Shown here: piece after piece, positions 10,661 through 63,339 of the stretch
Position numbering within the stretch: position 1 is the first letter of the stretch
Layout of the letters: every line of letters begins with the position of its first letter
Source of the DNA: Rhynchopus sp. YZ270_cl-10
Taxonomy: Eukaryota
Direction of reading: 5' to 3'
DNA: 64,000 nt
Assembly: GCA_964035575.1 (NCBI GenBank)
Contig: OZ037844.1
Location: 806,001-870,000 of the forward strand
The notes under the pieces: model-generated
Databases searched by the model: none
What the model saw: the letters and a program-made list of their open reading frames with translations, nothing else
Told to the model about the DNA's origin: nothing
Program-made: the position numbers and the translations under genes

Positions 10661-11900
10661 ATGGGGTGTTCCGGGGTGTGGAATTTTGGGCACGTTCACA
10701 AGTTTTCACAAGTTTTCACAACATAGTATTTGCCATTTTTATGTGAAGAGTTGTGAAAAGTTGTGAAGAGTTGTGAATTGAAATGAAAATTTGGATGAAA
10801 AAAACACAGATGTTGTGAAGAGTTGTGAACAGTTGTGAAGAGTTGTGAATTGGATTAAAAAAAGGGGGGCTTTTTTTCCAGGGTTTTTTGCAGGACTGGT
10901 CAGGTCAAGTGTGCTGTGCACAGGGCTAGCTAGCGTGGGTCCGTGGGTCAAGTTGGCCGTACCACCCCACCCCCTGTGCGAGGAGGACGACGGAAGTCCG
11001 CGGCTAGTTCGCTTGTTGTCTTTTTTTTTCAACATGTTCGCAACTCATAAAAAAGTAGCGTACCGTGCGCCTGCGGCGCAGCTAAAAATTCCGAGTGGTA
11101 GCCCGCAGGTCTACCCGAAATGTTGCGCACTTTGGCTTCGCCAGAAAAGTTTTGGTGCTATTTTTGCCAGGGGGTGACCTGTTTTGCTTGCTCTGAGCTG
11201 GGGTCTAAACGGGAGACTATACTAGATACGACGACACCCACTTCGAAAAGTGGGTGATCCCTTGCTGCTGTCCCCAGTTTTTTGTCAGAGGGGAAAGAAG
11301 GTTTCAACGCTCCCAAGGCCCACCCACAAGACCTGTCAACTCCCTTGGGTCGAGAGCCTCCAGGGCCCTCCTCATAGTTTCGAGAGCTTGACGAGTGCTC
11401 CTCGTTTAGTGTTGAAGCCAAACCGGATTTTGGGGACAATTTTATCCGAAAATGGCCCCGCCTATTAATGACCGGGCTCATATTTTCCAAAAATTTAAGT
11501 GGTCATAAAATTGTCCAATTTTCAACATTGACCCCACCACTGCACGGGCGGATCCCAAAAATGCAAACCGATTAAAAAGTTGAAAAAAACACCTAAAAAC
11601 ACGTGGCCCGAAAGGGCCCAAATTGTCGGGTCAGCCACACCGTTTTAAGCACTTTTTGCACACAGAACCGCCTGTGTTGCCAAACAACGTCCGCCAAGGT
11701 GCCCTGTACCTACCTGGGTAGGTGGGTGCCCAGGCACCACCCAGACCTCGCCACGTCACAACTGTTCACAACTTTTCACAACTTTTCACAACTTTTCACA
11801 ACTCTTCACACGCACTTTTTTGTGAAGAGTTGTGAAAAGTTGTGAAGAGTTGTGAATTGAAATGAAAATTCCCAAAATTCCATACCCCGGAACACCCCAT
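10661..11900. mobile_element. Non-autonomous TIR element, Mutator/MULE-like
   Basis: 30-bp TIR ATGGGGTGTTCCGGGGT(G/A)TGGAATTTTGGG with 1 mismatch. 9-bp flanking duplication AAAAATAAA (low complexity). Subterminal TTGTGAA(A/G)AG arrays. Confidence 0.75.
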
Positions 11901-12506
11901 AAAAATAAAATTCAAAAAAAAAAAAAAAATCATATTGAGATGAAACACAGCAACTCTTTTGAGAAAAAAGCTGCCTTGAAAAAAATGAGAAAAGTCGGTA
12001 AGATGAGCCTACGCCCCTCCGCCCTCTTTGTGCTCAGCCACCAAACAAAAACGCAAAAAAAAACAGACTAATACCAGATAAAGGACGAAACGAAATGTGT
12101 TAACCAAAAAAGAGAGAAGCTGAAAGTGCAAACGCATCACCGTTCATCGGGCGGACGCAGACACTGGAAAAAAAAAATACTCTCCTTCTTTCCCCCTACC
12201 CCTCCCCCTCCCCTCTCCTGCGACGCAATCATGGATTTTTTTTTTATTTTTTTAGGTCCGCTTTTTGGACCATCTATGATCGTCTCCGTGAGACACGCAA
12301 CAATCTGTGAGAGCTTCGTGAGAGCCTGTGAGCACCCTACCGAGAGTTAAATGAAAAAAAAAATCTCTCCACACCCCACAGTATGTCAACCTCTTGAAAC
12401 AAAAGTTTCACTTGTCGTTCCCTCACCCACCCTCCTTCGTTGATGCGTTGACGCCCTTCCACTACTTTCCGCTCACAAAAGCGAATAAAAACACCCCCAA
12501 AAAAAA

Positions 12507-13298
12507 TCACGACGAACCTTCTGATGAGAGGCCCATTCTCTCTTGTTCTGAATCAAAAATTCTGTGGACCGCGTCGCCCGCCGTTTCATGCGACACTTGC
12601 TCTTCACTGAATGTATAAAACGAGTCTTCCAACGAAGACAGCTGCTTCCTACAGAGGGGGCACGTGGGCGACGGCTGCTCTGACCACGACATGATACATT
12701 GCGCACAGAAGGCATGCCCACAGGTTAGCACCAGGTCTACAGAGGACTCAATGCATACACAACAGGTTTTGTCGTGCTCATCGTGTACGCGAATTGGGGC
12801 CTCTTTTGCCTTGGCGTATGTCGCTCGGAGTAGTGCAAGAACCTCGTAGAACGCTGCACCACCGATCTGTTTGACCCCGTCACCACAGTGCACACCGATG
12901 CGGGTGTGTGCGAGGCGGCGCTCTGCGGTGCGACGCATTGAGAGGATGTGTTTTGCGGTGTGTGGTGGTGTTCGTCGAAAGGGGAAGGCAATACGACGCA
13001 CCTTGGGGTACGCTTCGACGAAGAAGACCAGAGGTTCGCCTCCCATGTCGGCAAGGCATCGTGCCAGCCTCGTAGCCTCAGACACATCCGCCTCTACCGC
13101 TGCCAGCGTGGCGTGGCATGGGGTGTGCCGTCCTACGCCCGCCCCCGACACCCACCGTACCACCTGTGACAGAATCCCAGCAGGACCCAAAAAGCTTCGC
13201 CCCGCAGCCTGTTCCGTACAATAAGGGAAATAGTCCAAAGAAGGCACGTCCTGCACAGACCCGCCCAAGTCTACAAAGTCGTTTGACGAATCTGCCAT
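12507..13298 (-). CDS. C3HC4 RING finger E3 ligase, RNF141/AIRP2-like (263 aa)
   Basis: CCVC..LTCGHAFCAQCIMSW..TCPLCR motif. Start MADSS follows a polypyrimidine tract. The longer ORF upstream runs into a transposon. Confidence 0.85.
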   Translation of the reverse strand: MADSSNDFVDLGGSVQDVPSLDYFPYCTEQAAGRSFLGPAGILSQVVRWVSGAGVGRHTPCHATLAAVEADVSEATRLARCLADMGGEPLVFFVEAYPKVRRIAFPFRRTPPHTAKHILSMRRTAERRLAHTRIGVHCGDGVKQIGGAAFYEVLALLRATYAKAKEAPIRVHDEHDKTCCVCIESSVDLVLTCGHAFCAQCIMSWSEQPSPTCPLCRKQLSSLEDSFYTFSEEQVSHETAGDAVHRIFDSEQERMGLSSEGSS

Positions 13299-13699
13299 AG
13301 TGTGTGGGGAGGGGGAGGGGGAGGGTACTGAGATGCATGAGGGGGTGTGAGGGGGTGTGAGGGAGTGTGAGGGAGGGGGGGGTGCGGTCAGGGCACTAGC
13401 TAGGTGCTTTTTTGCGGTTTCCGCGGTAACCGCAAAACCCCGGTTTTGCGGTTTGGCAGTGTTTTTTCTAAGGGGGTTGGAGGGGGGCGGTTTACACCCC
13501 TGGGATTTTTTGGGGGGAAAACCGCCCCCCTCGAGGGGGGCGGGGGTTTGGATTTTTTTTTGGGATTTCTGGGGGTTTAAAGACCACCACAGGTGGTCAA
13601 AAGTGCCAAATTTTGGTTTTAACGGCCTCAAATCGTCGAAATTAGCCTAAAATAGGGGGTCAATACCCGTCGGTCAAAGCAACAACGTCAAAGCTTCGG

Positions 13700-13984
13700 T
13701 TGAAGTATGCTTGTGCGAGAGAAGCAATGAGTCTGCCTGTGGCAGTTGCTGTGATGGTGTTGGTGGCCAGCTTTCCTGTCGGGACAGTTGATGTCGAGCG
13801 AGCTTTTTCTGTGCTGAAGCTCATCATGACCCCACTGCGGAACCGACTCCGACAGGACACACTTGACATGTTGATCAGAATCAAGATGGAAGGTACGGAA
13901 CAGCCAGGAGACGACTTTCTTGAGAAGGTCATCGACAGGTTTGTGAAGATGCAGACATTGTGTACTCTTTTCTGTTCGTTTTAG
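13700..13984 (+). pseudogene. hAT transposase C-terminal dimerisation-domain remnant
   Basis: FPVGTVDVERAFSVLKLIMTPLRNRL..TLDMLIRI matches the hATC motif. No upstream catalytic region is present. Confidence 0.85.
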
Positions 13985-14238
13985 TTTCACCCCCACCATT
14001 AAGTGCATGTTGCACGGTCCCATGTACAGTTCACCTAAAGACCCACAGCACCCCTCCCTGATGCCTTTTGATCAACATCCGCCCAAGAAAAAGCCCACAC
14101 TATTTGACTCATAAGCCCTGTGACTTGCAGGGAGACGCGCGCGAAGCGCGCAGGCGAGCGTTCTCACCAGGGAAAAAAAATTTTTTTTACGGCCCCCCTC
14201 GAAATGAAAAACCCAAATCCTAGAAAAAACACTGTTTG

Positions 14239-14927
14239 CAGGGTCCTCAAGGGGGTGCAAAAAAAAAATTTTTGCACCCAAAAAAAAAAAAAAAAAAATT
14301 CGGGGGGGTGCAAAAAATATTTTTGCACCCCCAAAAAAAAAAAAAGTTTTTTGGGGCGAAAAAAAATTTTTGAGGGGGGATTTCAGGCTTCAGCAGGGAT
14401 TCTCTGGCTTTTCGTCAGCACCACAACGGACACAGCCAAGCACCACTCGGTGGCTGTCACACTCACAATGTGTGAAAGTGGTGCCAGGGATGCTCCCTGC
14501 GATTGTCGCCACCTTTAGCAGTTCCAGGAAAGCAAGCGAAGTGATTATGTGGAAGTGTATTTCGTTATATGCATGGGTACTGAGTGTAATTTTCCGCTCG
14601 CTACGCTCGCGGAGGTACACCTTAAAATTTTTTCCCGCTCGCTTCGCTCGCGGAAAGACACCCCAATGTGAAAAAAAAACGGGCGCAGGAAAATTTTTTT
14701 GAGCCTCCCACGATTTCACAAAACCCATAGCGTCAGGCCCTGGTTTCCCCATTTTCCCGCGAATTTTCACACCTCTTCCAACTTTGTCAGGGAGGAGCGC
14801 GCGCGAAGCGCGCGCGACGACCGCTTGTGTGGGGAGAAAGCTCGGAATGGACTTTTCTGAAGGTTTTGTACAGAAAAATTTTTGCACCCCTAAAATTCCC
14901 AGAGGGGGGTGCAGGCTGAGGACCCTG
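14239..14927. mobile_element. hAT MITE nested in the 13389-15730 element
   Basis: 11-bp TIR CAGGGTCCTCA. 8-bp TSD ACTGTTTG at 14231-14238 and 14928-14935. Subterminal GGGGTGCA/TGCACCCC motifs. Confidence 0.88.
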
Positions 14928-15743
14928 ACTGTTTGGCGAAAAAAAAAAAAAAAAAACGGAAAATCTCGGGGCAGAAAGAAAAAAAAAAATGTGGGGGGTT
15001 TTGGGCACTGTTGGGGCCCCCTCGCCCGACCCCCACATGACTGACATGATGGCACCTCAATTTTTTTCTGCTCGCTGCGCTCACGGAAGTACACCCCAAA
15101 AAAATTTCCGCTCGCTTCGCTCGCGGAGTTAACCCATATTTTTTTTTGCCTGCGGCGCCATTTTCCTTTTTTGCTTCGCAAAAAAAAAGGATTTGTTGAG
15201 TGACTCTGGTGTAAAACCGGCATCTTTACACCGCACCCTATTTTTTTTTGCCTGCGGCGCCATTTATTGTTTTACAATGTCTTCGGGAATCCCCTTGCAA
15301 TTTGGACAGTTGCATTTTGCAACCGAAAATGCAATCGATTCAGGTAGAGGGGTGGTCCACGATCGGGGGGATTAAGTCAGAGCATAGTGAGCCGTGCCAC
15401 CGCGGACATGGAGGAGTATGTGATAGAATGGTCGACAGCAAACAGGAGACTGGGGGAGTATGTGCAAACGTCGGAAGCTGTGCAGACCATGCGGCAACAC
15501 ATGCACACGCACAGAAGCATTCTGATACATGCAATGAAGTTGACAGGAGATTCGACCAGGGGTCAGTCGGGTTTAACCCCGTAAAAAATATCCTGTAAAT
15601 AACCCCTTCCCAAAATCTCCCCGTCCCTCATTCGTGTGTTTTCCCTTCTAGTTTGTCGCCGCGCGAAAATTTTTTTTGAAACCGCAAAACCGCAAAAAAA
15701 CGGGGGAAAAAAAGTCTAGCTAGTGCCCTGGGTGCGGTGAGGG

Positions 15744-16399
15744 CAGTGCTGACGCTAAGGAAAAAGCCGGTCATATATGACCAAAAAAAAAAAGGAAAAA
15801 AAAAGTCTGAAAATATGCCGGTCATATATGACCGGTCATATATGACCGGTGTTGGGTGGGTGGGCAGGGTGGGGTAGGGGATGGTCGGAAGTCCCCCCCA
15901 GTTGGCACCTCACACGAGCCTCTGAGTGACCAGAAATGGCCTCAGGAACAAAGTGACCCCGTCACAGCCAGAACGCGACTCAATTGGTCAAATGCCGAAG
16001 GAAAAGGAATCAGGCAGCGTGGCGAAATAATAAAAGTAGCGTACCGTGCGCCTGCGGCGCAAGCTTGCCAACGCACCCTTCCCTTTGACATAGTATATCA
16101 GTAAAAATGTGCAATTTTAAGCGCATTTTTTTGAAATGTTGCGTACCGTGGCTTCGCCACGAACCTTTGGGTGCCATGACCGCCGTTTCTTATTGTAAAC
16201 TGATCCCACGCGTGCCTGGTGCAAATATCAGTGAAGTGCCGAACTCTGCAGAGGAATTCGCACATTCCGCCGGAGGCCCCCAACTTGAGCTGGGTTGGGG
16301 ACCCGGGCGCGCGAAGCGCGCCCGGGCTCGGCCGAAAAAAAAAAAAGTCAAAAAAAATTTTTTTATATGACCGGCCAGCCGGCCTTAGCGTCAGCACTG
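15744..16399. mobile_element. hAT MITE (656 bp)
   Basis: 17-bp TIR CAGTGCTGACGCTAAGG. 8-bp TSD GGTGAGGG at 15736-15743 and 16400-16407. Subterminal CCGGTCATATATGACCGG motifs. Confidence 0.92.
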
Positions 16400-16426
16400 G
16401 GTGAGGGTAAAAAAAAAAAGAGTTGA

Positions 16427-21183: not shown

Positions 21184-24100
21184 TCAGGCATGCACAGAAG
21201 AGTACGCACAGTCTCGGTGTGATTTGCTGTGGATGGGTCTGCTGCTGGTGGGTTTGCTGTTGGTGGGTTTGCTGTTGGTGGGTTTGCTGTTGGTGGGTTT
21301 GCTGTTGGTGGGTTTACTGTTGGTGGATGTGCTGTGGATGGGTCTGCTGCTGGTGGGTTTGCTGCTGGTGGGTTTGCTGTTGGTGGATGTGCTGTGGATG
21401 GGTTTGCTGCTGGTGGGTTTGCTGTTGGTGGGTTTGCTGCTGGTGGGTTTGCTGCTGGTGGGTTTGCTGTTGGTGGGTTTACTGTTGGTGGATGTGCTGT
21501 GGATGGGTTTGCTGTTGGTGGGTTTGCTGTTGGTGGGTTTGCTGCTGGTGGGTTTGCTGTTGGTGGGTTTGCTGTTGGTGGGTTTACTGTTGGTGGATGT
21601 GCTGTGGATGGGTTTGCTGCTGGTGGGTTTGCTGTTGGTGGGTTTGCTGTTGGTGGGTTTGCTGTTGGTGGATGTGCTGTGGATGGGTTTGCTGCTGGTG
21701 GGTTTGCTGTTGGTGGGTTTGCTGTTGGTGGGTTTACTGTTGGTGGATGTGCTGTGGATGGGTCTGCTGCTGGTGGGTTTGCTGTTTGTGGGTTTACTGT
21801 TGATGGGTCTGCTGTTGGTGGGTCTGCTGCGCACACCGTGCTTGAGTAGAACCTGCACCACACCTGCATGGTGTTCGTACCTCGCAACGGACAACGCAGT
21901 GTAACCAGCCCTCGTCTTGTGGTTCACATCCACACCCTTCAAACCCACAAGATAGCGCACAGTCTCGATGTGTCCAAATAGGGCGGCAATCATAAGGCAT
22001 GTGTATCCTCGCTTTTCTGTGGCGCACACGTTCGCCCCTACTTTGACCAACATCTTCACAACTGCGAGTGCCCCAGCACCACAAGCAATGTGCAGAAACG
22101 AAAATCCGTTTTCGTCCTTTGTCTCGATGTCTGCCCCTGCATCAAGCAACAAGTGCACAAGATAGCTCATAATCTCGGTTTGTCTACAACAAGCCGCAAG
22201 GAAAAGACACGTGCGCCCGTCGTTGTCTGTGACACACAGTCCCGCACCTGCTTCGACCAACATCGTCACAAGTTCTAGTTCCCCTACCTCACAAGCATGG
22301 TGAATAGGTGAACGTCCCTTGTATCCCTTTGCCTCGATGTCTGCACCTGCATCAATCAGCACCTGCACCACACTTGAGTGCTTCTCCAACACAGCGGTGT
22401 GCAGTGCAGTCCAGGCGTCGCCAGCTGACTGATTCACATCCACCTCAGGCATGCACAGAAGAGCACGCACAGTCTCGGTGTGTCCAAAACGAACTGCATG
22501 CATAAGACATGTGTCTCCTTTGTGGTTTGTGACACACACTCCCGCACCTGCTTTGACTAACACCTTCACAGCATCGAGTGCCCCTTCCTGGCTGGCTAAG
22601 AGCACAGGCGATTCTCCATTCTCGTTCTTTGCCTCGATGTCTGCACCTGCATCAATGAGCACCTCCACTACTTCAGAATAGTTTTCTTGAGCTGCAAAGT
22701 GCAACGCAGTGAAGTCCTCAGCATCCTTGTGATTCACGTCCACCTCACGCAAACTCACAAGATAACGCACAGTCTCGGTGTGTCCAAAATATGACGCAAG
22801 TGTAAGACATGTGTCTCCTTCGTTGTCTGTAGTACGCACTCTTGCACCTGCTTTGACCAACATCTTCACAGTGTCGAGAGACCCGTTCTTGCTGGCCACA
22901 CTCAGGGGCGAATATCCATGCACGTCCTTTGCCTCGATGTCTGCCCCTGCATCGATGAGCACCTTCACCACATCGATGTGTCTTTCGCTCGCTGCACAGT
23001 GCAACGCAGTGTAGCCGTTGTTCTCTGAGTAATTCATGTCCACCTCCGGCAAGCCCACAAGATAGCGCACAGTCTCGGTGTGTCCATTCCATGCCGCCAG
23101 GGTAAGACACGTGTCTCCTACGTCCGCACCTGCTTTGACCAACACCTTCACAGTGCCCAGTGCCCCTGCCTTGCTTGCCATGAGCAGAGGTGAACACCCC
23201 TCCTTGTCCTTTGTCTCGATGTCCGTCCCTGCATCAATCATCAAGTTCACAAGATAGCGCACAATCTCAGTATGCCCATTGGCTCCCGCAAGGAAAAGAC
23301 ACGTGCGCCCGTCGTTGTCTGTGACACACAGTCCCGCACCTGCTTCGACCAACATCTTCACAAGTTCTAGTTCCCCTACCCCACAAGCATAGTGAAGAGG
23401 TGAACGTCCCTTGTCTCCTTTTGCCTCGATGTCTGCACCTGCATCAATCAGCACCTGCACTACACTTGAGTGCTTCTCCAACACAGCGGTGTGCAGTGCA
23501 GTCCAGGCGTCGCCAGCTGACTGATTCACATCCACCTCCTTCAAGCCCACAAGATAGCGCACAGTCTCGGTGTGTCCATTAGCAGCCGCAGATAAAAGAC
23601 ATGTGTCTCCTTTGTTGTCCGCACCTGCTTTGACCAACACCTTCACAGCATCGAGTGCCCCTTCCCTGCAAGCACAGTGCACAGGTGAAGATCCGTCCTC
23701 GTCCTTTGCCTCGATGTCTGCCCCTGCATCAATGAGCACCTCCACCACTTCAGGATAGTTTTCTTGAGCTGCAAAGTGCAACGCAGTCAAGTTGTCATCT
23801 TCTGAGTGATTTACATCCACCTGCGGCACGCTCACAAGATAGCGCACAGTCTCGGTGTGTCCAAAATACGCCGCAAGGGTAAGACACGTGTCTCCTTCGT
23901 TGTCTGTAGTACGCACTCCCGCACCTGCTTTGACCAACATCTTCACAACTGCGAACTTGCCTGAAATACTCGCCCTGAGCAGAGGTGAACGTCCCCTCTC
24001 GTCCTTTGTCTCGATGTCTGCCCCTGCATCAATGAGCACCTGAAACACTGCAGGGTCCTCCCACATGGCTGGACACGGTATCTCATCGTCGCTGTCTTCC

Positions 24101-24465
24101 CCTATCCGGTGTGGGACAAAGGCGACGTTGCTGCAGACTGACTTCCAATGCTGCAAGAGGACCTCCGTGCACGCAGTGTGGTCTGCGTGGATGCACTCAC
24201 TCAGCAGCATCCCGAAACCCATCTGCGTTGTCTCAACATACGGAAGAAGCAGTGCGAGGCATTCATCGTGGTTCCCTCTGCATGCCTCATGCACAGCATC
24301 GAAGGCAACCGTTTTGCTGTCTGTGTCTGGGCTGAGCTTCTCAAGTCCTGTCCGCACGGCCGTCGTATCGCCGTTCCTGGCAGCCTCCACCAAGACCTCG
24401 TCGCCAAGATTTCTTCTCTTTGGTGCCTCATTCTCTGCAGTGCTGTCTGTGTGCTGCTTTGACAT
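21184..24465 (-). CDS. Ankyrin-repeat family paralogue 3 (1093 aa, 8 modules plus S/T/K/P-rich minisatellite tail)
   Basis: Start at MSKQH by homology. Ankyrin array followed by (SKPTN)n. Confidence 0.88.
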   Translation of the reverse strand: MSKQHTDSTAENEAPKRRNLGDEVLVEAARNGDTTAVRTGLEKLSPDTDSKTVAFDAVHEACRGNHDECLALLLPYVETTQMGFGMLLSECIHADHTACTEVLLQHWKSVCSNVAFVPHRIGEDSDDEIPCPAMWEDPAVFQVLIDAGADIETKDERGRSPLLRASISGKFAVVKMLVKAGAGVRTTDNEGDTCLTLAAYFGHTETVRYLVSVPQVDVNHSEDDNLTALHFAAQENYPEVVEVLIDAGADIEAKDEDGSSPVHCACREGALDAVKVLVKAGADNKGDTCLLSAAANGHTETVRYLVGLKEVDVNQSAGDAWTALHTAVLEKHSSVVQVLIDAGADIEAKGDKGRSPLHYACGVGELELVKMLVEAGAGLCVTDNDGRTCLFLAGANGHTEIVRYLVNLMIDAGTDIETKDKEGCSPLLMASKAGALGTVKVLVKAGADVGDTCLTLAAWNGHTETVRYLVGLPEVDMNYSENNGYTALHCAASERHIDVVKVLIDAGADIEAKDVHGYSPLSVASKNGSLDTVKMLVKAGARVRTTDNEGDTCLTLASYFGHTETVRYLVSLREVDVNHKDAEDFTALHFAAQENYSEVVEVLIDAGADIEAKNENGESPVLLASQEGALDAVKVLVKAGAGVCVTNHKGDTCLMHAVRFGHTETVRALLCMPEVDVNQSAGDAWTALHTAVLEKHSSVVQVLIDAGADIEAKGYKGRSPIHHACEVGELELVTMLVEAGAGLCVTDNDGRTCLFLAACCRQTEIMSYLVHLLLDAGADIETKDENGFSFLHIACGAGALAVVKMLVKVGANVCATEKRGYTCLMIAALFGHIETVRYLVGLKGVDVNHKTRAGYTALSVARYEHHAGVVQVLLKHGVRSRPTNSRPINSKPTNSKPTSSRPIHSTSTNSKPTNSKPTNSKPTSSKPIHSTSTNSKPTNSKPTNSKPTSSKPIHSTSTNSKPTNSKPTNSKPTSSKPTNSKPTNSKPIHSTSTNSKPTNSKPTSSKPTSSKPTNSKPTSSKPIHSTSTNSKPTSSKPTSSRPIHSTSTNSKPTNSKPTNSKPTNSKPTNSKPTSSRPIHSKSHRDCAYSSVHA
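21222..21828. repeat. 15-bp coding minisatellite (GGTGGGTTTGCTGTT and variants), about 40 units
   Basis: Directly visible, with higher-order patterning of variant units. Confidence 0.95.
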
Positions 24466-25169
24466 GGTTTGTGTGTCGTCTCTGTGTCTTTCTTTGGTTG
24501 TCTTTTTGAGGTGATGGGGGTGGTACCTGACACAAGGCGGAAGCAGATGAGAAAGCAAAGGTTGTCGATGTGCCACATGGACCGACAAACCGGACCAGGA
24601 CGCTTCCGAATTGAAACAAGATAGAACCTTTGGGGTCCAACAACTACTCCCACCCTCCTTTTTTTTCTTCCGTTTCCCTTTTTCGTTCCATAAGGCTAGA
24701 CATTCACTAAAGCTGTGTACTACACCGACTCTGCCTACTCACAGCCGAAGGTGAGTTCTGTACTCAACACACCTGCCCTCAACAGGCAAGATAGCATATT
24801 TGCAGGAAATGCACATCCCAACAGTGTCGCACTGACACCGACATACCCCCCCCTCCCCTTTGTTCCAGAGTCTGCAAACCAGAGGCCGTTATAACAACTT
24901 TTCTTGTCTTTTTTTTCCCCCCCCGCAATTAACAACCACCCCTCCCCTGCTTCACAGCCACGTGCTCCATGCTACGTTATACACAAGATAAATGTTACTC
25001 TCCCCCCCGCCCTCACACACCCTCCAATCACCTAGGGACTTTGCACAGTGTGTTCAAAATCCTTCAAAAGAACCCCATATTTTTTGTGAACTTCAAAAAT
25101 CCCCCCCATTTTTTGTAGTTTCGACAATCACCTGTCCGAGGACGGGTTCTGTACACAAAGTCGCCCGAA

Positions 25170-26704
25170 CAGGGTAGATCCTTATTTTCGCTAAAAACGC
25201 TAAAAATCCCAGATTTATTTTCGTTTTTTTCCTTTTTTTTTTCTCTCCCGTTTTTGAAATTTTTCCGCGCAGGCCTGACGCTAACTTTCAGGTTTTTGGG
25301 AAATCGTGGGGGTTGATGGTTTGTCCGCTCGCGCAGCGAGCGGAAAAATTGAGTGACGGTCTAAAAAAAAAAAACTAACAAGCAGGTTGGTACTGTACTG
25401 AGGCAGAATAGTGGTGTTTTTTTACACATCTCAGCTGTCGTAGAACTAAACCCCAGGGGATAATATAGGTTTTGGGGGTTTTCTCTGAAACTCGGTCGAG
25501 CCCAACCCAGCTCGTTAGGGCCTCCGGCGGAATGTGAGAATTGCTCGGTTATCCTACTGCGGAGTTCGGCACTGCATTGATATTTGCACCAGGCACGCGC
25601 AGTGACAGTATATTTACAAAAAGAAACGGCGGTCGTGGCACCCATGGCGAAGCCACGGTACACAACATTTCTGAAAATGTTGCCATAAAACGGCACTGTC
25701 GTTGGTAATTTTCAACAGTTACCGTAAATTTTACTTCCAGATTTTGCTGAAACGAAAGTTTCTGGCGAAGCCACGGTACGCAACATTTCAAAAAATTGCG
25801 CTCAAAATTGCACATTTTTACTGCCAAACAGGGCTGCAAGCTGCGCTGCAGGCGCACGGTACGCTACTTTTATTATTTCGCATGCTTCTTTTTCCTTCGG
25901 CATTTGAACAATTAAATCACATTCTGGCTGTGACCCTTGTCGGACACTGCGCCCTCTGACAAGGGTAATACTTTCTAGAAACATTCTGAAAAGTGGTAGT
26001 GCCCGGCATGAGCAAGAAAATTTTCAAAATTAAATAGGCACCAGCAGTTTGGGTAGGCGAGACCGCATTGGGTGAACCTCCGCGAGCGCAGCGAGCGGAA
26101 ATTTTTTTTTTGCAGTTTTTGGGCAAAGTTCAAAATCCCACCAAAAATTAAGTGGGGATTTTCGACAACAATACTGGGGCCCTATGGGTTTTTGGATTTT
26201 GGCCTAACAGTGTTGTGTTTCTGCCTTGGTCCGGTTGAAGTCTTTATTACTGGATCTATCGTACAGGTGACCCACACCTGACCTTTAACACACACGCACT
26301 TCTTCGAAACCTCCACCCTCAGCACCAACCCTTTTACAATGGTCCGCTTTGCGGGTTTGTGGACATAGTAATTGTGTTCTTCAAAAATATGCTTCAAAAT
26401 TGTCTTATGCAAGGTGACACTGACTCATTGGTCCTTGTCTTATGAAGTGAAGACAAATATTAAAGGGGCATTGGCGGGCCGAAGGCCAGCCAAAAAAACG
26501 GTAGCGAACTTTTACTTTTTTTCCTTTTGGTTTCCCCCTTATTTTGACTTTCCGGATCGATTGCGGACCGTGGTGGTGCCACTCTGTGGCTGGAAATTAG
26601 TAGGTAACCAAAAAAATGGGCCAGAGAAAAAAGGAAAAAAAAAAAGGAAAAAAAAATAAAAAATCTCGAATCCTTATTTTCACTTTCGCTAAGGATCTAC
26701 CCTG
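25170..26704. mobile_element. Non-autonomous hAT element (1535 bp)
   Basis: 15-bp TIR CAGGGTAGATCCTTA. TSD CGCCCGAA at 25162-25169 and 26705-26712. Empty paralogous site CGCCCGAAGGCTAAT at 61096-61110. Confidence 0.95.
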
Positions 26705-37523: not shown

Positions 37524-38956
37524 GGTTTGTGAAGATGTTGATATTCAATGTTGTGTCTTTTATGCTGTTTCTTTTTGTGGAGGTTGTGACGTGAGTGGTG
37601 AATGTCTGCATACCCAATCGCAAGCACACCACAGGACTGCCGAGAAACAGTATGCAGGTTGCGTGCATAACAAAAGGTTCTCACACAGGCACCGAAAAAA
37701 AATACATGTAGTCGCACACCCCAAAATGTCATTGGTAAACATTTGTGGGCAAATCGCGATAGCACATACAAAACAGTACACCAGCGAGTGTGGCAAGGCA
37801 GAGTTAACCTCCTTGGTCTGACCCCCAAAGAATGAATTATCCAACACAAAAGTAACAAAGGGGAGGGAAACAGTCTTTTTATTGACGTCAATCACAACCT
37901 CAAAGAAGAAAACGCACAGTGGTTGAAAATCAAAAGGGTTGAAGTGGGTTTTTGAGGGGTTAAATAGGGTGTGGCAGACATGACCACGGTTTTATGTTTC
38001 TTTTCTGTATGCTTTACGCAGGGCTTGAAACAGCGTTTCGTGGTTTTCAACAAAACTCGGTCACAACTCAATGTCGGCTGAAGCCAATGTACTGCAGAAG
38101 GTATAGCCACAGTACGCATACCACATCGTTGCCCAAGGGTAAGTGAAAACAACACCGAAACAAAACCAAGGTCTGCACTGGTCCCTCGCAAACTGACAAG
38201 AGCACGTCTTTCTTGTCACACAATAACGCTTTTGATTACCACTTCACAGATTTCACTCATTTCAATTCAGACGTGAAGGTGGCTGCACGATTACAACAGA
38301 AAGCCCTGCCCTGTGAGGCAAAGAGATGAGAGGGAGAACTGAACATACAATGTGTAAAGGTTATGACACTGGCCCGTCGCAGAGCCTGAGGACGAGGCTT
38401 CTGCTTCCAGTGTGCTAGGGGGCACCTGTCCGAGGACAGCTGTCCTTATGAGTGCGTGTGGTGTAATGTACATGCGGTGTAGGGGAGGGGGATGTTTTTG
38501 TTCACACTTCGTGGGCGAGGAGGAGATGATGTGACTCCATTCCTGGGCCATACCGTTCACCTCACACCGCTCTTTCCCTTTTGGGTTTCTTCACACACGT
38601 CTTTGCACCTTCGCACTCAATTGCAGAATCAATGGAAACAGCATAATTCAGATAATAACAGAACGACGTTGTTGCTCTTTCCACTGATACGACCATTTCC
38701 CATGCACTCCACAAAGGAAGGAATAAGATTATTATTTCGCAATTAAAAACTTTCTGATAGACTAATGAACAAAAATCGACGTGTTACCCCAAGACTGAGA
38801 AACAGACGAGAAGTGCTCAGCACACAGGAACAACAGTCAGCAGCTCTGTCACGTTGCTGCACACTACTTTGAGTGGGCAAGGCCCGCAGTCGTGAATAAT
38901 ACGACCCTTCACTTCGTCTGCCATTCCCGCTCTCATCCACCTCCGTGCTCTCACAG

Positions 38957-41952: not shown

Positions 41953-42911
41953 GGGGTGGCATCAAAACAAAAAACGCGGACAATGTCCGCGTTTTTGGGG
42001 GGGGAGGGGGGGGGTCTGAAATTCCAGAAAACGCGGACATTTTGGGGTTTTTTTTTCCTCGAAAATTTTTTTCTTCACTGGGGTTGTACACGATTTTGAC
42101 CAAAATTTATAAAAACTCGTCCATTTCGGCAAATTGACCCCACCACAGAACCGGCGGATTCAGGAAATGCAAATGCCGGTGTTTTCGGGCAAAATAAAAA
42201 ATACAAGATGCCCGCGTTTTTTTGCAAAATGTACACGAATGGGGGGCCCTTAAACCCCTGCTACCATGTGCTTCTACAGGCAAATACTTGGACCCCTTTA
42301 CCTTACACTGACGGGTTTTGACAAAATCAAGAACTTGTCCATTTTGGCAAATTGACCCCACCACAGAACGGACGGATTCCGGAAATGCAAATGCCGGTGT
42401 TTTTGCACATTTTCATGGTTTCAGCATCAGAGAGAGAAAATCTGGGTTGTGGGGTTTACCTTGGCCCCTTTACCTTACACTCATTTTGACCAAAACCAAG
42501 AACTTGGCCATTTCGGCAAATTGACCCCACCACAGCGCGGACAGATCCCGGAAATGCCAATCGCGGCATGTTTTGGGGCTGAAAAATTTTCACCTGAAAA
42601 ATTTTTTCAGCAGCATTTTTTGTCCGAAAATGGGCCCCACGTATTAGTGACCGGGCTCATATTTTCAAAAATTTAAGTGGTCAAAAAATTGTCCAATTTT
42701 CGAGATTGACCCCACCACTTTCTGGACGGATTCCGGAAATGCCAAAAAACTGTGTTTTGGGTCACGAATTTGCACCCCGTCACCCAAAAACCAGCAAAAA
42801 ATAGGGGAAAAAAAAACAAAAAATGTCCGCGTTTTGGGGGGGGGAGGGGGGGGGTCTGAAATTCCCCAAAAACGCGGACATTGTCCGCGTTTTTTGTTTT
42901 GATGCCACCCC
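41953..42911. mobile_element. Non-autonomous TIR element with 3-bp TSD (PIF/Harbinger-like)
   Basis: TIR GGGGTGGCATCAAAACAAAAAACGCGGACAATGTCCGCG... with TSD TCG. Empty site TACATGTAGTCGCACACCCC in the paralogous flank at about 37703-37722. Confidence 0.9.
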
Positions 42912-47542: not shown

Positions 47543-50279
47543 GGGGGATCCGTAAATAGACCGGCAACGACCAGACACGTAATTAGTGTGTATAGCCGGT
47601 CTTTAGCCGGTCTTTAGGGTCCGTAAAAAGACCGGCTCTTAAGGATTACCGGCTATAAGGGCCGGTCCTACCCACCCTCGAAAAAGACCGGCAGACCGGG
47701 TGTACAATTGTACACACAAAAAATACCCGATTTTTTGGAAAAAACCAAAGGGGGGACCCTTTGGTCGTCGAAATTCCCCAGCCAAAATTGGTCGCAAAAT
47801 CGGCCGATTTTTCAAAAATCTCAAAAAAAAAAAAATCCCAAAAATTTTTTTCACAAGTGTTTTTGAGGCCTGCTCACTACACCCTAGGCACCCTTCTGGG
47901 ACCAAAAAAGCAAAAAAAGCAAGAATTGGGCTGTTTTGAGCATCTAGAGTTTATTCCCCAGCCATTTTCTGCACCACCAGTGCATTTTGTATGGGCCAGC
48001 GCCTTGTCAAAAATCGAAAAACAGGCCTTTTGCTAACTTTGGGATTTTCCCCCTGAATGGCATGATGGTCAAAAAAAAATAATTTCCTGGAAAAAAAGTA
48101 CATTCCGAGCTTTCCCACCTGGTAAAAGCGGTCGTCGCGCGCTTCGCGCGCGCCTCCCTGCCAGCCACAGGGTGGAGAGGCGAAGGGTCAGCTTTGCAAG
48201 CTAACAAAAACGGAATCTAATCCTTTATTAACGGTGCTTGGTCTTGCGCCTTACGTACACTAACCGTACAAAATCAATACGTCTTCCAGAAGCAGGGGCT
48301 GTTGCAACAGTTGGGTCACTTTGAAATAACAATGTTCAATTTTTTGCAGCTTGGGTCAAGTTTCATTTCTGGCTGCAAAATGCAAGGGAATCCCCTTAGA
48401 CATTGTAAAATGGCATCGTAGGCAGGATAGCGTACAGCGCGAGCGAAGCGAGCGGGAATTTTTTTTGAGGTATACCTCCGCGAGCGCAGCGAGCAGAAAA
48501 ATTTCAAGGTGCCATCATGCCATCATGCCATCATGCCATCATGCCATCATGCCATCATGCCATCATGCCATCATGCCATCATGCCATCATGCCATCATGC
48601 CATCATGCCATCATGCCATCATGCCATCATGCCATCATGCCATCATGCCATCATGCCATCATGCCATCATGCCATCATGCCATCATGCCATCATGCCATC
48701 ATGCCATCATGCCATCATGCCATCATGCCATCATGCCATCATGCCATCATGCCATCATGCCATCATGCCATCATGCCATCATGCCATCATGCCATCATGC
48801 CATCATGCCATCATGCCATCATGCCATCATGCCATCTGGGGGGAAATCCCCAGGTGATGCAGAGCGAAAGCCCCCCCGTGGCATGATGGTGGCATGATGG
48901 AAAAAAAAATAAAAAACGCCCAAAAACGTGGCATGATGGCATGATGGTTAGCAAAAGGCCTGATCGAAAAATCTCAAAAAAAAAAAAAAATCCCAATTTT
49001 TTTTCACAAGTGTTTTTGAGGCCTGCTCACTACACCCTAGGCACCCTTCTGGGACCAAAAAGTCAAAAAAAGCAAGAATTGAGCTGTTTTGAGCATCTAG
49101 AGTTTATTCCCCGGCCATTTTTATGCACCACCAGTGCATTTTGTATGGGCCAGCGCCTTGTCAAAAATCGAAAAATCTCAAAAAAAAAAATTTTTTTTTC
49201 GGGAAAATTTCGACCCCTGAGTTGGGTTTTTGGGCACCAAAAAGTGCAAAAAAACGCAAAAATCGGGTGTTTTGACGATCTGGGGGTAAACCATATGCAT
49301 TATGCACCTTATGCATTACTACAGGGGCCCACAATTTCGACTTTTCCTTAGCAAATTCCGTCACAATTTTTTTTTCGATTTTGGCAAAGGCAAATCTCAG
49401 GCAAAAAAAATCACCCCGATAGTGGGTCCTTGGGTGTCCAAAGATGCCAAAAACACAAAAAAATTGATGTTTTGACCATCGGTGGGCACCTAAAACGCAC
49501 TTTTCTGCCCAAAAAATGAATATCGATTTTTTCCTTAGCGTTCTTATAGCCGCGATTTTTCAGTTTTTTTTCGCAAAGGGTGAAAAAAAAATTCACCGAA
49601 AATAGTGTGTCCTTGGGAGACCAAAAACGCAAAAAAACGCAAAATTTTGGTGTTTTGACCCTTCAGAAGCACCCAAAACGCACTTTTGTGTACAAAAACA
49701 CGCATATTTCACATTTCCTTAGCAATTCCTTTCACAAGTACAAGGCGATTTTTGACCAGACAAAAAAATTTTTATTGCTCAAAAACGGGCGTGGTAGGCA
49801 CCCGAAGTCATAAAATGGCCCAAAGAATCTAAAAACCTCAGAAATACATGTTCGTGAAAAACATTTGCAAGTCAAAATTCAACCACAATACGGTCATTTT
49901 GTGCATACCCTGTGACTGTAGTGGTTAGAGAACACGCATGCAGACCTGTTCCTTGCAATTTCCAGTGTTGTGTTTATCAATGCATGCATCCAGAGGACCT
50001 CTGGTTTACGTAATCGTAGGCACTCCTGAGCAAAAATGAAGTCGGTTTTTGACCCAAAATCGGGGTGTGTGGGCCCTAATTTGCTCCAAATTTGGCCGAA
50101 AATTGGGATTTTTCTGAAAATTTCATTGTGCTCAGCAAAAATCCTTGCTTTTTTGAAGAATTTTCCAAAAAATATGCTATACCCCCTATGACTGGACCCA
50201 ACTCCCCTCACCCCTTTTTTTTTTTCACCCAAAAGGGCCGGAAATTTTACACACTAATACACAAACTTACGGACCCCCC
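47543..50279. mobile_element. Non-autonomous element with 3-bp TSD (Harbinger-like), carrying a satellite
   Basis: Imperfect TIR GGGGG(A/G)TCCGTAA plus a subterminal ATTAGTGTGTA/TACACACTAAT pair. TCT on both flanks. Internal direct repeat at about 47810-48020 and 48965-49172. Confidence 0.7.
48510..48836. repeat. Perfect 8-bp tandem repeat (TGCCATCA)n, about 41 copies
   Basis: Directly visible. Confidence 0.98.
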
Positions 50280-58068: not shown

Positions 58069-59163
58069 CTAACTGGCATCGGTGTCAGTATCAGTGTCAT
58101 CACATTCAGCACCAACGTCTGCCCCTGCATCAATGAGCAACTTCGACACATCTGAGTGCTTCATTGACACTGCGTAGTGCAGTGGAGTTAAGCCGCTGTT
58201 ATTTGACTGATTCATATCCACCTCAGGCATGCACAGAAGAGTGCGCACAGTCTCGGTGTGTCCACAGTACGCTGCGTACACAAGACATGTGTCTCCTATG
58301 TTGTCTGTGACGCACACTTCCGCACCTGCTTTGACCAACAACTTCACAGCATCGAGTGACCCTTCCCTACAAGCACGGTGCAAAGGTGAAGATCCATCCT
58401 CGTCCTTTGCCTCGATGTCTGCACCTGCATCAATGAGCACCTCCACCGCTTCAGTATAGTTTTCTTGAGCTGCAAAGTGCAACGCAGTGAAGTTCTCATC
58501 TTCTGAGTGATGCACATCCACCTCAGGCACGGTCACAAGATAGCGCACAGTCTCGGTGCGTCCGAAACATGCCGCAAGCGTAAGACATGTGCCTCCTTCG
58601 TTGTCTGTGACACACACTCCCGCACCTGCTTTGACCAACATCTTCACAACTGTGATCGTGCCTGAAATGCTCGCCCTAAGCATAGGTGAACGTCCATCCT
58701 CATCCTTTGTCTCGATGTCTGCCCCTGCATCAATGAGCACCTGAAACACTGCAGGGTCCTCCCACATGGCTGGACAGGGACGAGGTGCATTACCTTGGAC
58801 CTGCCCGTGTGGAACAAACGCAACGTTGCTGCAGACTGACTTCCAATGCTGCAAGAGGACCTCCGTGCACGCAGTGTGGTCTGCGTGGACGCACTCACTC
58901 AGCAGCATCCCGAAGCCCATCTGCGTTGTCTCAACATACGGAAGAAGCAGTGCGAGGCATTCATCGTGGTTCCCTCTGCATGCCTCGTGCACAGCATCGA
59001 AGGAAACCGTTTTGCTGTCTGTGTCTGGGCTGAGCTTCTCAAGTCCCGCCCGCACAGCAGTCGTGTCGCCGTTCCTGGCAGCCTCCACCAAGACCTCGTC
59101 TGCAGAAAGCTTTCTTCCCTTTGGTGCCTTCTCTGCAGTGCTGTCTGCGTGTCGCTTCGACAT
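58069..59163 (-). CDS. Ankyrin-repeat family paralogue 7 (364 aa, 2 triplets)
   Basis: Constant N-terminus plus ankyrin repeats. Confidence 0.88.
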   Translation of the reverse strand: MSKRHADSTAEKAPKGRKLSADEVLVEAARNGDTTAVRAGLEKLSPDTDSKTVSFDAVHEACRGNHDECLALLLPYVETTQMGFGMLLSECVHADHTACTEVLLQHWKSVCSNVAFVPHGQVQGNAPRPCPAMWEDPAVFQVLIDAGADIETKDEDGRSPMLRASISGTITVVKMLVKAGAGVCVTDNEGGTCLTLAACFGRTETVRYLVTVPEVDVHHSEDENFTALHFAAQENYTEAVEVLIDAGADIEAKDEDGSSPLHRACREGSLDAVKLLVKAGAEVCVTDNIGDTCLVYAAYCGHTETVRTLLCMPEVDMNQSNNSGLTPLHYAVSMKHSDVSKLLIDAGADVGAECDDTDTDTDAS

Positions 59164-59852
59164 GGTTTGTGTGTGGTCTCTGTATCTTGCGTGGTGTGGC
59201 CTTTTTGAGGTGGGTGATGCACACCCTATTCGATTCTACGGCAGGGCAATGCATTGTGGGGGTTGAATAAACACAGTTTTTTTCTCTATTCTTTTTCAAA
59301 TCTCATTCTATTCATACAAAAGGCTAGATATTCGCATTGCTGAACGTACATTTCTCTCCTATTTTTCTCCCCATCTGAACCCCACCCCCATCCCCTCCCT
59401 CCTCCTTTCCCCTTCACCCATCCACACAGATGAAGTGCATGCCGTTTACCTTCATGAACCCAGACAGAACGGAGGTGCCCACAACTGCGCCAGATATTGA
59501 AGTTGCAGTACTACAAGCTCCGCCAGAACCTGTACCGGCACGTAGACGGAAGCACGGCCCAATGCGAAATACTCTCATGAGAAAATCGGGGCCTGCGGTG
59601 GGTTCGTAGTGGTGTTGGCGCAAGAAAGATTGCACTCGTGATGGGGCGATGGTGAAGCAGCTGAGGCCAGACGACCGCCACAGTGGGATGAGCAACACCA
59701 TCCACAAATACGATGCCTTCAGTGGTAGCCTCTCTCGTGGTCGTGCGCTGTGGGAAGCAAAGACTCTCTCTCGAACACAGCGGTGTGAAGTGGAGTCCAG
59801 GCGTCGCTAACTGGCATCGGTGTCAGTATCAGTGTCATCATCAGTGCCATCA

Positions 59853-60911
59853 TCAATCAACCTCTGCCCCTGCATCAATGAGCAACTTCGACACATCTGA
59901 GTGCTTCCTTGACACTGCACGGCGCAGTGGAGTGAGGCCACTGTTATTTGACTGATTCACATCCACCTCAGGCATGCACAGAAGAGCACGCACAGTCTCG
60001 GTGTGCCCCCAGTACACTGCGTACATAAGACATGTGTCTCCTATGTTTTCTGTGACACACACTCTCGCACCTGCTTTGACCAACAACTTCACAGCATCGA
60101 GTGCCCCTTCCCTGCAGGCACGGTGCAGAGGTGAAGATCCTTCCTCGTCCTTTGCCTCGATGTCTGCACCTGCATCAATGAGCACCTCCGCCACTTGAGG
60201 ATGGTTTTCTTGAGCTGCAAAGTGCAACGCAGTGAGGTTGTCCTCTTCTGAGTGATTCACATCCACCTCAGGCAAACTCACAAGATAACGCACAGTCTCG
60301 GTGTGTCCGAAATATGCCGCAAGCGTAAGACACGTGTCTCCTTCGTTGTCTGTAGTACGCACTCTTGCACCTGCTTCAACCAACATCTTCACAACTGCGA
60401 ACTTTCCTGAAGGACTCGCCCTAAGCAGAGGTGAACGTCCCCTCTCGTCCTTTGTCTCGATGTCTGCCCCTGCATCAATGAGCACCTGACACACTGCAGG
60501 GTCCGCCCACATGGCTGGACACGGTCTATTACCTTTGCTATCTTCCGCTAACCCATGTGGGACAAACGCAACGTTGCTGCAGACTGACTTCCAATGTTGC
60601 AAGAGGACCTCCGTGCACGCAGTGTGGTCTGCGTGGACGCACTCACTCAGCAGCATCCCGAAGCCCATCTGCGTTGTCTCAACATACGGAAGAAGCAGTG
60701 CGAAGCATTCATCGTGGTTCCCTCTGCATGCCTCGTGCACAGCATCGAAGGAAACCGTTTTGCTGTCTGTGTGTGAGCTGAGCATCTCAAGTCCCGCCCG
60801 CACGGCAGTCGTGTCGCCGTTCCTGGCAGCCTCCACCAAGACCTCGTCTGCAGAAATCTTTCTTCTCTTTGGTGCCTTCTCTGCAGTGCTGTCTGTGTGT
60901 CGCTTCCCCAT
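59853..60911 (-). CDS. Ankyrin-repeat family paralogue 8 (352 aa, 2 triplets)
   Basis: Constant N-terminus plus ankyrin repeats. Confidence 0.88.
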   Translation of the reverse strand: MGKRHTDSTAEKAPKRRKISADEVLVEAARNGDTTAVRAGLEMLSSHTDSKTVSFDAVHEACRGNHDECFALLLPYVETTQMGFGMLLSECVHADHTACTEVLLQHWKSVCSNVAFVPHGLAEDSKGNRPCPAMWADPAVCQVLIDAGADIETKDERGRSPLLRASPSGKFAVVKMLVEAGARVRTTDNEGDTCLTLAAYFGHTETVRYLVSLPEVDVNHSEEDNLTALHFAAQENHPQVAEVLIDAGADIEAKDEEGSSPLHRACREGALDAVKLLVKAGARVCVTENIGDTCLMYAVYWGHTETVRALLCMPEVDVNQSNNSGLTPLRRAVSRKHSDVSKLLIDAGAEVD

Positions 60912-61569
60912 GGTTTGTGTGTGGTCTCTGTGTCTTTCTTGGTATGGTCTTTTTGAGGTGGGTGATGCACACCCTATTCGATTCTACAGCAGGGCAATGC
61001 AATGTGGGATTCAATAAACACAGTTTTTTATTCTCTGTTATTTTTTTAGTAGTTTCGACAATCACGTGCCCGAGGACGGGTTCTGTACACAAATCCGCCC
61101 GAAGGCTAATGAATATCAAAGGTATTGATGCAGATCATCCTCAACCCAAAGAAATCTCTTTTAAATTTTTCTTTTAAATGAAACAACACATGGTTGCTGT
61201 TTACTCCGCACTGAAACAATGAAACACGGGAGGGCGCACACACTCTGATGAGGAAGAAAGACAGCCAGTGGGTCCATCATAAGGGATGTCTTGAAGTGGG
61301 AAAGGGTTTACGACACGGTTGTCGTAGGGGGCTATTTTATTTTTTTGATCAAATAGAAGTGAAATTCTATTATTTCAGGCACGATGCTGTAGGCTGTAGA
61401 AGGGGGGGGGGGGGGGTCTCAACTGAAGGCAACGGGGGGGTTTTTATTTTTCCTTCCTTCAAAACTCACAACGCTTTTTGGTTTTTGGGAGACACAACAA
61501 GGTGCCAGGTTCTATGATATGCACGGAACCACCCTACACCTGTTTGTCATGTTGTTTCCCGTGCAATAC

Positions 61570-62095
61570 ATGGAGAAACGTTTCGCGCTCGAAACTAGGG
61601 AAACAATGACAAACAGGTGCAGGGTTTTTTTTTTTGAATTTGCTGCATTTGCATATTTTTCTGATTTATGACAAAGAACAAGAGATACGTATGAAAAATT
61701 CACTAAAATGGGCGTGCCTGGCCGCAAATCGCCCTGGGGATCACTCATATATTTCAATAAACCACCTGACGACCTTGACAGAGCATTTTTTGTCCCAAAA
61801 GAAAATACATGTTTTGTGAAAAAAAGCCCAAGAACTGCGTCACGTTTGCGTCACGCTTTGGTGCCAAAATTGAACACTTGCCAAGAAATTCCTCCAATCA
61901 GACAAAACTCCTTCTAAACACCTGAAAACCACTTCAGTCGACACCCGCTGGGGGTCCCGGGGTGGAAATGTATGGAGGGAAACATGGGAAACATTTCGCA
62001 CTTGAAACTAGGGAAATAATGACAACACAGGTGCAGGGGTTTTTGAATTTGATGCGTTTTGCAGTATTTTTTTTATGACAAAGAACAAGAGATAA
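61570..62095. repeat. Imperfect direct repeat of about 115 bp (about 61570-61688 and 61987-62093)
   Basis: GAAAC..TTTCGC..GAAACTAGGGAAA.AATGACAA..CAGGTGCAGGG..ATGACAAAGAACAAGAGATA occurs twice. Confidence 0.7.
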
Positions 62096-62187
62096 GCAAG
62101 AAGGGCAACGATTGGCTATGTGCCGACAGAGCTAAAAGAAGCATGTATCCAGCTGCTCCAGAGGGAGGTATCAGAGAAACGTCATTA

Positions 62188-62428
62188 CCGACCCTCCCCC
62201 GTGAAATTGTCCCCCCTGGGAGAAAAAGTGAGGGGGGGACAATATCACGTACGGCAAAAAGGGGGGACAATTTCTCGTACTGTAGGGGGATGGCCGTTTT
62301 GGTGTGAAGAAGGGGGAGCAAAGGTTGTCCCTGCGACTCCCTTGAAATTGCCCCCCCCTGCCTTGAAATTGTCCGTCGGGGCAAAATACCGGTTTTTTGG
62401 GGGGGACAATTTCACGGGGGAGGGTCGG
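62188..62428. mobile_element. 241-bp MITE (superfamily uncertain)
   Basis: 29-bp TIR CCGACCCTCCCCCGTGAAATTGTCCCCCC with internal GGGGGACAAT motifs. Flanks are TA and CA. Confidence 0.78.
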
Positions 62429-62463
62429 CAAAAAAAAAAAAAAAAAAAACGCCACGTCGAGCG

Positions 62464-63339
62464 CAGGGCTCGCGCTAAAGTCCATCCCTCATCCCGGGAT
62501 TTTTGGGGGTTTTGGTAGGAACGTTTTTTTTTTGCAGTACGGGGATTTCATTAAGAAACCAGAAGTTCTAATATTGTTGAGTAAGACCACCACATAGTGG
62601 ACTTGCATATACATGTGACCCCGCCGTGGAACGCAATTGGCTCGGAAAGTCAAAAGAAAGAGGAGAAAAAAGAAAAGGAAAAAAAAAAAAAAAAGTTGGT
62701 TACCGTGCGCCTGCGGCGCTGCCTGTTCCCTTCCAGTTTCTACAGGCAAACACTTGCCCCCTTTACCTTACACTGACGGGTTTTGACCAAAACCAAGAAC
62801 TTGTCCATTTCGGCAAATTGACCCCACCACACAACGGACGAATTCCGGAAATGCAAATGCCGGTGTTTTCGGGCATTTTCATGTTGCAAGACGTCAGGAT
62901 CAGGGAGAGAAAATCTGGTTGTGGGATTTACATTGGCCCTCTTTACCCACATGGATTTTGACCAAAACCAAAAAATTGGCCATTTCGGCAAAGTGACCCC
63001 ACCACAGCGCGGACGGATTCCGGAAATTCCAATCGCGGTATGTTTTGGGGCTGAAAACCCACTGATTTTCAGGAGAAAAATTGCTTCCAAATCTCCGAAT
63101 TTTCCGAATTTTCCTGAAAATGACCCTTGTTTACGAGTATGGGTTCATATTTTGCGAAAATTTAAGTCACTAAAATTTTGTCCATTTTTCCGTATATACC
63201 CCACCACAAGCCGGGATTGGCCCGGAAATGCCACAAAACGGGGTTTCCGGGCCTCCCCAGCTAACCTTTTCAAGGAACGTTTTTCCGTACCCGAAATCCA
63301 TTTTTTCCCCATTTTTTCCCATAATTAGCGCGACCACTG
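62464..63339. mobile_element. Non-autonomous hAT element (876 bp)
   Basis: TIRs CAGGGCTCGCGCTAA / CAGTGGTCGCGCTAA. 8-bp TSD GTCGAGCG at 62456-62463 and 63340-63347. Confidence 0.88.

Follow-up and report, generated by a model that had tools for sequence, protein, structure and literature searches.

One abundant non-coding repeat core within DNA transposons of different termini in Rhynchopus sp. YZ270_cl-10

The closest described counterparts of the elements reported here are the Pack-TYPE or Pack-TIR transposons (Pack-MULE, Pack-CACTA, Pack-hAT and Pack-PIF), in which terminal inverted repeats (TIRs) and target site duplications (TSDs) of several superfamilies enclose an interior foreign to the autonomous parent (PMC8903248, PMC8277862). 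Capture has been described for all main TIR superfamilies, through insertion in tandem and re-mobilisation or else through template switching, and some Pack elements multiply after capture, smaller ones fusing into AB and BB types (PMC8903248, PMC8277862). Repeat arrays inside non-autonomous elements are known as well: Helentron-associated interspersed elements (HINEs; DINE-1, HINE-Mo, Cg_HINE) are modular and carry short dispersed arrays of ~140-220-nt monomers and a 3′ hairpin near T-rich DNA (PMC4067079, PMC7492417), and the Xenopus MITEs (miniature inverted-repeat transposable elements) miDNA4 and Xmix/Xstir are TIR elements with one or several repeat units, for which capture of a pre-existing repeat was proposed (PMC12628747, PMC9659126). 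Here we analyse a window of 64,000 nt from Rhynchopus sp. YZ270_cl-10 (assembly GCA_964035575.1, contig OZ037844.1, positions 806,001 to 870,000), in which three non-autonomous TIR elements, termed A, B and C (Table 1), contain units of one non-coding repeat core under distinct ends.

As in Pack elements, the TIRs and TSDs of A and B surround DNA that also occurs outside the family, and do so in several copies. Pack cargo, however, is a gene or unique chromosomal DNA that varies by element, whereas the cargo here is a single non-coding high-copy repeat in which no protein family was found. Unlike HINEs, which lack a TSD and possess subterminal inverted repeats, the present arrays are enclosed in TIR elements that have TSDs, and a search revealed no subterminal inverted repeat; the oyster HINEs, with related ends around unlike repeats in one superfamily, are the reverse of this case (PMC7492417). 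Each of the Xenopus repeats belongs to one MITE family, whereas the unit described here occurs under at least two terminus types. A further parallel is offered by the CORE, V, MESC and Nin-DC superfamilies of short interspersed elements (SINEs), which combine a conserved non-coding middle with ends suited to different enzymes; those are Pol III retroelements whose domains are conserved across phyla (PMC4758252), whereas the present core lacks A and B boxes and a conserved fold and was found only in runs of this genome.

The shared core is evident from BLASTN within the window. B 42272-42757 aligns with C 62738-63246 at 79.5% identity over 517 columns (E about 1e-121), and A 11440-11567 with B 42618-42745 at 86.0% over 129 columns (E about 1e-36). 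The original prediction, made by reading the sequence, had matched 42272-42590 to 62737-63060 and 42620-42735 to 11445-11555; both matches hold, the first block running ~170 nt further. Its description of the core as built of roughly 170-220-bp units was likewise borne out, with spacings of 218, 169 and 185 nt in B and of 175 and 202 nt in C. A unit profile search gave eight strong units of 76-93 bits (four in B, three in C and one in A), which match by construction since they built the profile; one reversed and ten locally shuffled windows scored at most 7.9 bits. Core units make up ~2% of the window. The spacers are unlike, and Tandem Repeats Finder did not report the core arrays.

The units fall into two types, I and II (tree support 100/99), and pair by position rather than by host: B2 with C1 (95%), B3 with C2 (89%) and B4 with A1 (86%), with B4, A1 and C3 grouping together. 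Identity between B and C is 281/305 columns in units 2-3 versus 106/135 in unit 4 (Fisher p=1e-4); within the latter, A agrees with B at 31 sites and B with C at 6 (p=4e-5). This pattern in B, C-like in units 2-3 and nearer to A in unit 4, suggests exchange and a mosaic origin.

An ordinary nested insertion would be expected to show termini of its own. Among the border-scan candidates listed for A, B and C, no convincing TIR and TSD were found at the core borders. The best candidate, A 11425-11564, has 10/12 inverted positions and AAACC on both sides, but other copies repeat AAACC upstream and not downstream. For A and B, the outer ends also recur in further copies.

Recurrence was assessed from contig depth, summed in 4 of 12 listed public runs, mapped onto B and A and expressed relative to the unique flank of B. 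The ratios do not include run X5, whose coverage seems insufficient (the A interior is only ~2x its flank); values below are for X1, X3 and X4 in that order. The unit centre lies at ~6,000-14,000x the flank (14116, 8750 and 11771), and spacers of the B/C type at 1675, 1347 and 1442. Most B-specific parts reach 100-600x, among them the right TIR (452, 573, 368), with B-only segments at 100-300x (a B-only spacer at 267, 299, 158). A-specific parts span 30-800x overall: the young interior gives 29, 50 and 49 (29-181 overall), positions 11590-11639 give 157, 357 and 266, and the wider A family lies at ~50-800x. A is itself embedded in a further repeat, with high depth at 10540-10639. Relative to the host-specific parts of A and B, the depth of the core is higher by a factor of ~10 to several hundred. 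Substituted contigs span the junctions between B-specific and core DNA at several times flank depth, at 42218-42337 (1248 in X1, 1262 in X4) and with a depth of 924 at 42035-42128 (X3). Contigs with 0-1 differences tile the A interior from the hairpin module M1 (described below) through the unit, and a 266-nt contig without differences links the interior to its unit in X5. Since these contigs carry host-specific sequence on into the core in copies other than A and B themselves, both composites have multiplied, and it is for these two families that recurrence with the core is established.

Based on the shared units, the distinct ends, the lack of a TIR and TSD around the core, the depth excess of the core over the ends and the further A and B composites, all of which are observed, we propose with moderate confidence that A, B and C, non-autonomous cut-and-paste elements that differ in their ends, each captured part of one abundant non-coding repeat from neighbouring repeats and were then amplified under their own ends. 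Each family's ends would determine the transposase that mobilises it, as is established for non-autonomous TIR elements, and the interior would be largely free, so that DNA copied during gap repair or contributed by nested or adjacent insertions could be carried along and amplified. New TIR pairs may have gained the core through template switching in gap repair; alternatively, a nested or adjacent insertion may have led to it, with a deletion or mobilisation of both together afterwards. Each route has been suggested for Pack-TYPE as well as Pack-TIR elements (PMC8903248, PMC8277862). Because units group by position, the three-unit array would have arisen once, and later exchange between copies would have made B a mosaic. 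The core would then be tolerated cargo, required by no transposase. A repeat with thousands of copies clustered among transposons is a likely donor. The commonest continuation after the unit (51, 90, 57 and 9 contigs of the four runs) is TAAGGACCCTTTTTAA, or a variant in X5; it has differing tails and was found neither in A, B or C nor elsewhere in the window, which places the main reservoir family probably elsewhere. Of the two options in the original prediction, a pool of modular DNA agrees with a core far deeper than its hosts, with the recurrence of A and B together with it and with a second shared module, and we therefore speak of a pool of modules. The other option, one passenger that swaps termini, is not borne out by the single unit of A, the mosaic-like B and a commonest continuation that differs from those in all three elements.

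Several points weigh against this proposal. The capture step is one that we infer, and neither a capture event nor a donor locus is seen in the window. With core units at ~2% of the window, their presence in both A and B would exceed what uniform random capture readily yields. Fast divergence of C3 alone, which has a long branch (0.41), could also yield the apparent mosaic in B. Summed contig depth is a rough proxy and not a copy number, a short contig can match several units, one study supplied both X1 and X3, and any of the runs may be the source of the window. Finally, allele frequencies at the sites that differ between B and C (40 of 84 listed) name no donor: among the 10 listed sites at which the variant is the base of C, it is the majority at five and the minority at five (three of these adjacent).

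The ends had been predicted to be hAT, Harbinger-like and MULE-like, and this division held in part. For C the hAT class stands. Its CAG...GCTA[AG] ends are common to the elements starting at 13389, 15744 and 48022, and since the first of these contains a hAT dimerisation domain (PF05699, E 3.1e-6), we regard C as hAT-type; its 8-bp TSD has the length given for hAT elements (PMC8903248). The ends of the full-length hAT of the window, at 7291-10006, are unlike those of C. In B, a 3-bp duplication (TCG) is confirmed in a symmetric reading by a paralogous empty site at 37700-37725; that site would accommodate an asymmetric 2-bp reading too, at the cost of the perfect TIR. The TSD thus has PIF/Harbinger length, but TCG, in the single copy seen, is not of the TTA/TAA (TWA) type, and Zator elements, which have 3-bp TSDs and GG ends, would fit equally well. 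The Harbinger-like label of B is founded solely on TSD length; among plant PIF elements TTA/TAA accounts for 52-81% of TSDs (PMC8903248).

A has a long TIR, as do elements of the MULE/MuDR superfamily (in A 29/30 at the tips, extending about 117-130 bp at 74% overall), and three of its open reading frames (ORFs) matched no Pfam family. MULE/MuDR elements make 9-bp TSDs. Within its A-rich tract, the duplication of A admits readings of 9 bp (AAAAATAAA, an exact match), 5 bp (TAAAA) or 2 bp (AT), and the MULE-like label is therefore unproven. In the 2-bp reading A starts GGGGTG, as B does, which raises the alternative that A and B form a single GGGGTG-ended clan holding the unit by descent, with one transfer to or from a hAT family. 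The kinship of the A unit with B4 agrees with this, as does another A-family contig in X5 that aligns to 10662 only and not 10661, which gives no support to an ATGGGG end. We nevertheless consider a common clan very unlikely: past the six shared bases, neither the TIRs nor the subterminal repeats of the two elements are related (BLAST gave no match), A contains both M1 and the second hairpin module M1b whereas B has neither, and the 9-bp reading is exact. Terminus types established as clearly distinct number only two, with 8-bp and 3-bp TSDs.

M1 is a 35-nt segment common to A, C and the hAT-type elements at 15744 and 25170, with a depth of ~8,600-15,000x the flank. On the minus strand it forms a GNA-triloop hairpin ~12 nt before a T-run and ends in CTAC or CAAC, with heterogeneous sequence beyond (loose-end agreement 0.51-0.56). 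This arrangement raises the question of whether the core forms the body of a rolling-circle element without TSDs (Helentron- or HINE-like, with M1 as its 3′ hairpin end) that inserted into A, B and C and whose nesting has eroded. The unit spacing in short arrays resembles the central repeats of oyster HINEs (140-180 bp, mostly 2-5 monomers; PMC7492417), and M1 resembles HINE 3′ palindromes (PMC4067079), which lie 8-35 bp from a T-rich end in elements with subterminal inverted repeats of 11-15 bp. M1 is only ~15 nt from the core in C, and the continuation TAAGGACCCTTTTTAA with its differing tails is possibly an end, although loose ends have a median length of 12-18 nt and the "end" may be the next conserved block. 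A subterminal inverted repeat (11 nt, at most one mismatch) was found in 0/3 of C, A and 15744. Moreover, M1 does not end in CTRR, the motif of such elements, it is uncoupled from the core (B lacks it, and two elements have it without the core), and the core borders differ among A, B and C. We therefore regard a rolling-circle origin as possible but unlikely.

Modules are shared beyond the core. Among the 11 TIR elements compared, 7 have internal segments in common with an element of different TIR, although for the hAT-type elements simple descent may account for the sharing. Within 13.2 kb of elements there are 16 GNA-triloop hairpins, versus 1.06 in shuffles (maximum 4), a ~15-fold enrichment; outside elements there are 4, versus 4.48 expected. 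This excess could mean that the core and the hairpins are selected cis-acting parts, comparable to the central domains of SINEs, that bind host factors, bend DNA or protect from silencing and so raise the success of any non-autonomous element. The recurrence of modules across TIR types, the amplification of both A and B with the core, and a unit centre ~6-8x deeper than the spacers and conserved across unit types would agree with such a role. That depth excess, however, follows simply from all unit types mapping to the centre; the units have diverged to 78-95%, 8 of the 11 elements lack the core, and neither a plus-strand consensus fold, convincing A-tract phasing nor an RNA family was found. 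Selection of this kind thus appears quite unlikely. We likewise consider it doubtful, if conceivable, that a kit of short non-coding modules (the unit and GNA-loop hairpins, each in ~ten thousand copies) acts in cis under any transposase as a "CORE domain" of cut-and-paste elements, which families of different superfamilies would be selected to acquire.

The core was also considered as a coding, RNA or structural feature, with the first two rejected and the last unconvincing. A coding passenger (for example Fanzor) is at odds with longest ATG ORFs of 107, 40 and 125 aa in A, B and C, B being non-coding, and with the lack of any Pfam family in the four ORFs tested (three of A and one of C), nor was an ORF family found in the elements. 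For a structured RNA, the plus-strand consensus fold has 4 pairs with a covariation term of 0.02, and Rfam gave no family at gathering score in the window and 6 sub-threshold matches in the B region, none centred on the core; DNA folds of single units range from z +0.02 to -4.28, with unlike structures. Phasing of A-tracts at 10 bp, as in bent DNA, was unconvincing (p 0.16, 0.047, 0.30 and 0.09). Consensus patterns of Pol III A and B boxes had no match in the core. In collection scans, a core 19-mer had 3 metagenome matches, none extending past ~21 nt and therefore attributed to chance; the core and M1 had 0 matches in viral contigs, and the core 0 in prokaryote genomes.

Table 1. Coordinates of the elements, core units and modules in the window.
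Feature	Position	Strand	Description
Element A	10661..11900	no strand	Non-autonomous TIR element, long TIR of tandem 10-bp subrepeats; TSD 9, 5 or 2 bp
Module M1 in A	11047..11083	-	GNA-triloop hairpin, ~12 nt, then T-run; ~8,600-15,000x flank depth
Module M1b in A	11117..11161	-	Second hairpin, built as M1; common to elements 15744 and 25170
A-subfamily-specific interior	11190..11422	no strand	~29-181x flank depth; 0-1-difference contigs link to M1 and unit
Core unit in A	11423..11570	+	Type II, resembles B unit 4
Element 13389	13389..15730	no strand	CAG...GCTAG ends, 8-bp TSD; hAT dimerisation-domain fragment 13646-13984 (+)
hAT-type element	15744..16399	no strand	8-bp TSD; M1 and M1b, without core unit
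hAT-type element	25170..26704	no strand	8-bp TSD; M1 and two M1b (minus strand), without strong core unit
Empty site of B	37700..37725	+	Paralogous ankyrin-gene region
Element B	41953..42911	no strand	Perfect 48-bp TIR, GGGG ends, subterminal palindromes; 3-bp TSD TCG
Core unit B1	42078..42185	+	Type I
B core block, units B2, B3, B4	42272..42757	+	Collinear with C
Element C	62464..63339	no strand	hAT-type, non-autonomous; CAG...GCTAA TIR 13/15; 8-bp TSD GTCGAGCG on both sides
Module M1 in C	62689..62722	-	~15 nt before core block
C core block, units C1, C2, C3	62738..63246	+	Three units
Diverged ninth core unit	63822..63868	-	16 bits; outside A, B and C; upstream part matches loose-end variant in runs
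Elements with GNA-triloop mini-hairpins	10661, 13389, 15744, 25170, 48022, 62464, 7291		Start positions

The window (49% GC, eukaryotic) contains many TIR elements between host genes. Its hAT-like element at 7291-10006 is full-length, with TAAGAA ends, an 8-bp TSD (TGGGGGTG) and an uninterrupted 726-aa DUF659 ORF; it is probably young, given a protein cluster of 11 members on long contigs, and a collection scan found no viral locus for the protein. The element at 48022-48962 combines hAT-type CAGG...GCTAA ends with a 9-bp duplication, backed by an empty site in a neighbouring tandem unit (~49170-49190), and contains 41 perfect copies of an 8-mer. At 28186-29562, an element with TAGGGGGG ends, in a C-run, has dispersed internal units of its own (130-240 nt) unrelated to the core, and thus the same internal architecture as the core bearers, from different sequence. 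Nesting and adjacency are frequent: element 13389 adjoins 15744, and a fold-back element at 10050-10354, built of 22-bp repeats with a 4-bp TSD (ACCC), lies within an element at 10027-10388 that has CACCA ends and an apparent 2-bp CA duplication. Within element 25170, a solitary hAT-type left end (CAGG...GCTAAC) at 25270, for which a motif scan gave no partner right end, is a further trace of nesting.

Long host ORFs are nearly all on the minus strand and include ankyrin arrays, a leucine-rich repeat (LRR) protein from a family with hundreds of relatives, a ZIP transporter and a RING protein. Throughout the window the genes are co-oriented and apparently intron-less, resembling euglenozoan gene clusters. 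The ankyrin-repeat genes form a tandem family with a common N-terminal domain (16803-41782 and 58069-60983), one of which (21184-24738, minus strand) has a terminal 15-bp repeat encoding in-frame (PTNSK)n. The accessible part of the Diplonema papillatum genome paper reports abundant dispersed repeats and does not describe the present core.

Our literature search, incomplete for subscription papers and Repbase, found no case in which DNA transposons that differ in superfamily or TSD length have, at the level of families, a non-coding core in common. The usual view derives non-autonomous DNA elements by deletion from their own autonomous parent and classes them by similarity. Since the families with 8-bp and 3-bp TSDs described here share half their length, annotation by similarity would either merge these families or mislabel them. 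It appears that existing ends placed around the DNA of other repeats can give rise to new families. Should the modules prove cis-acting across superfamilies, a host or general transposition factor would be implied; if they are cargo, the genome would still offer a clear natural example of modules shuffled among families that are young and datable.

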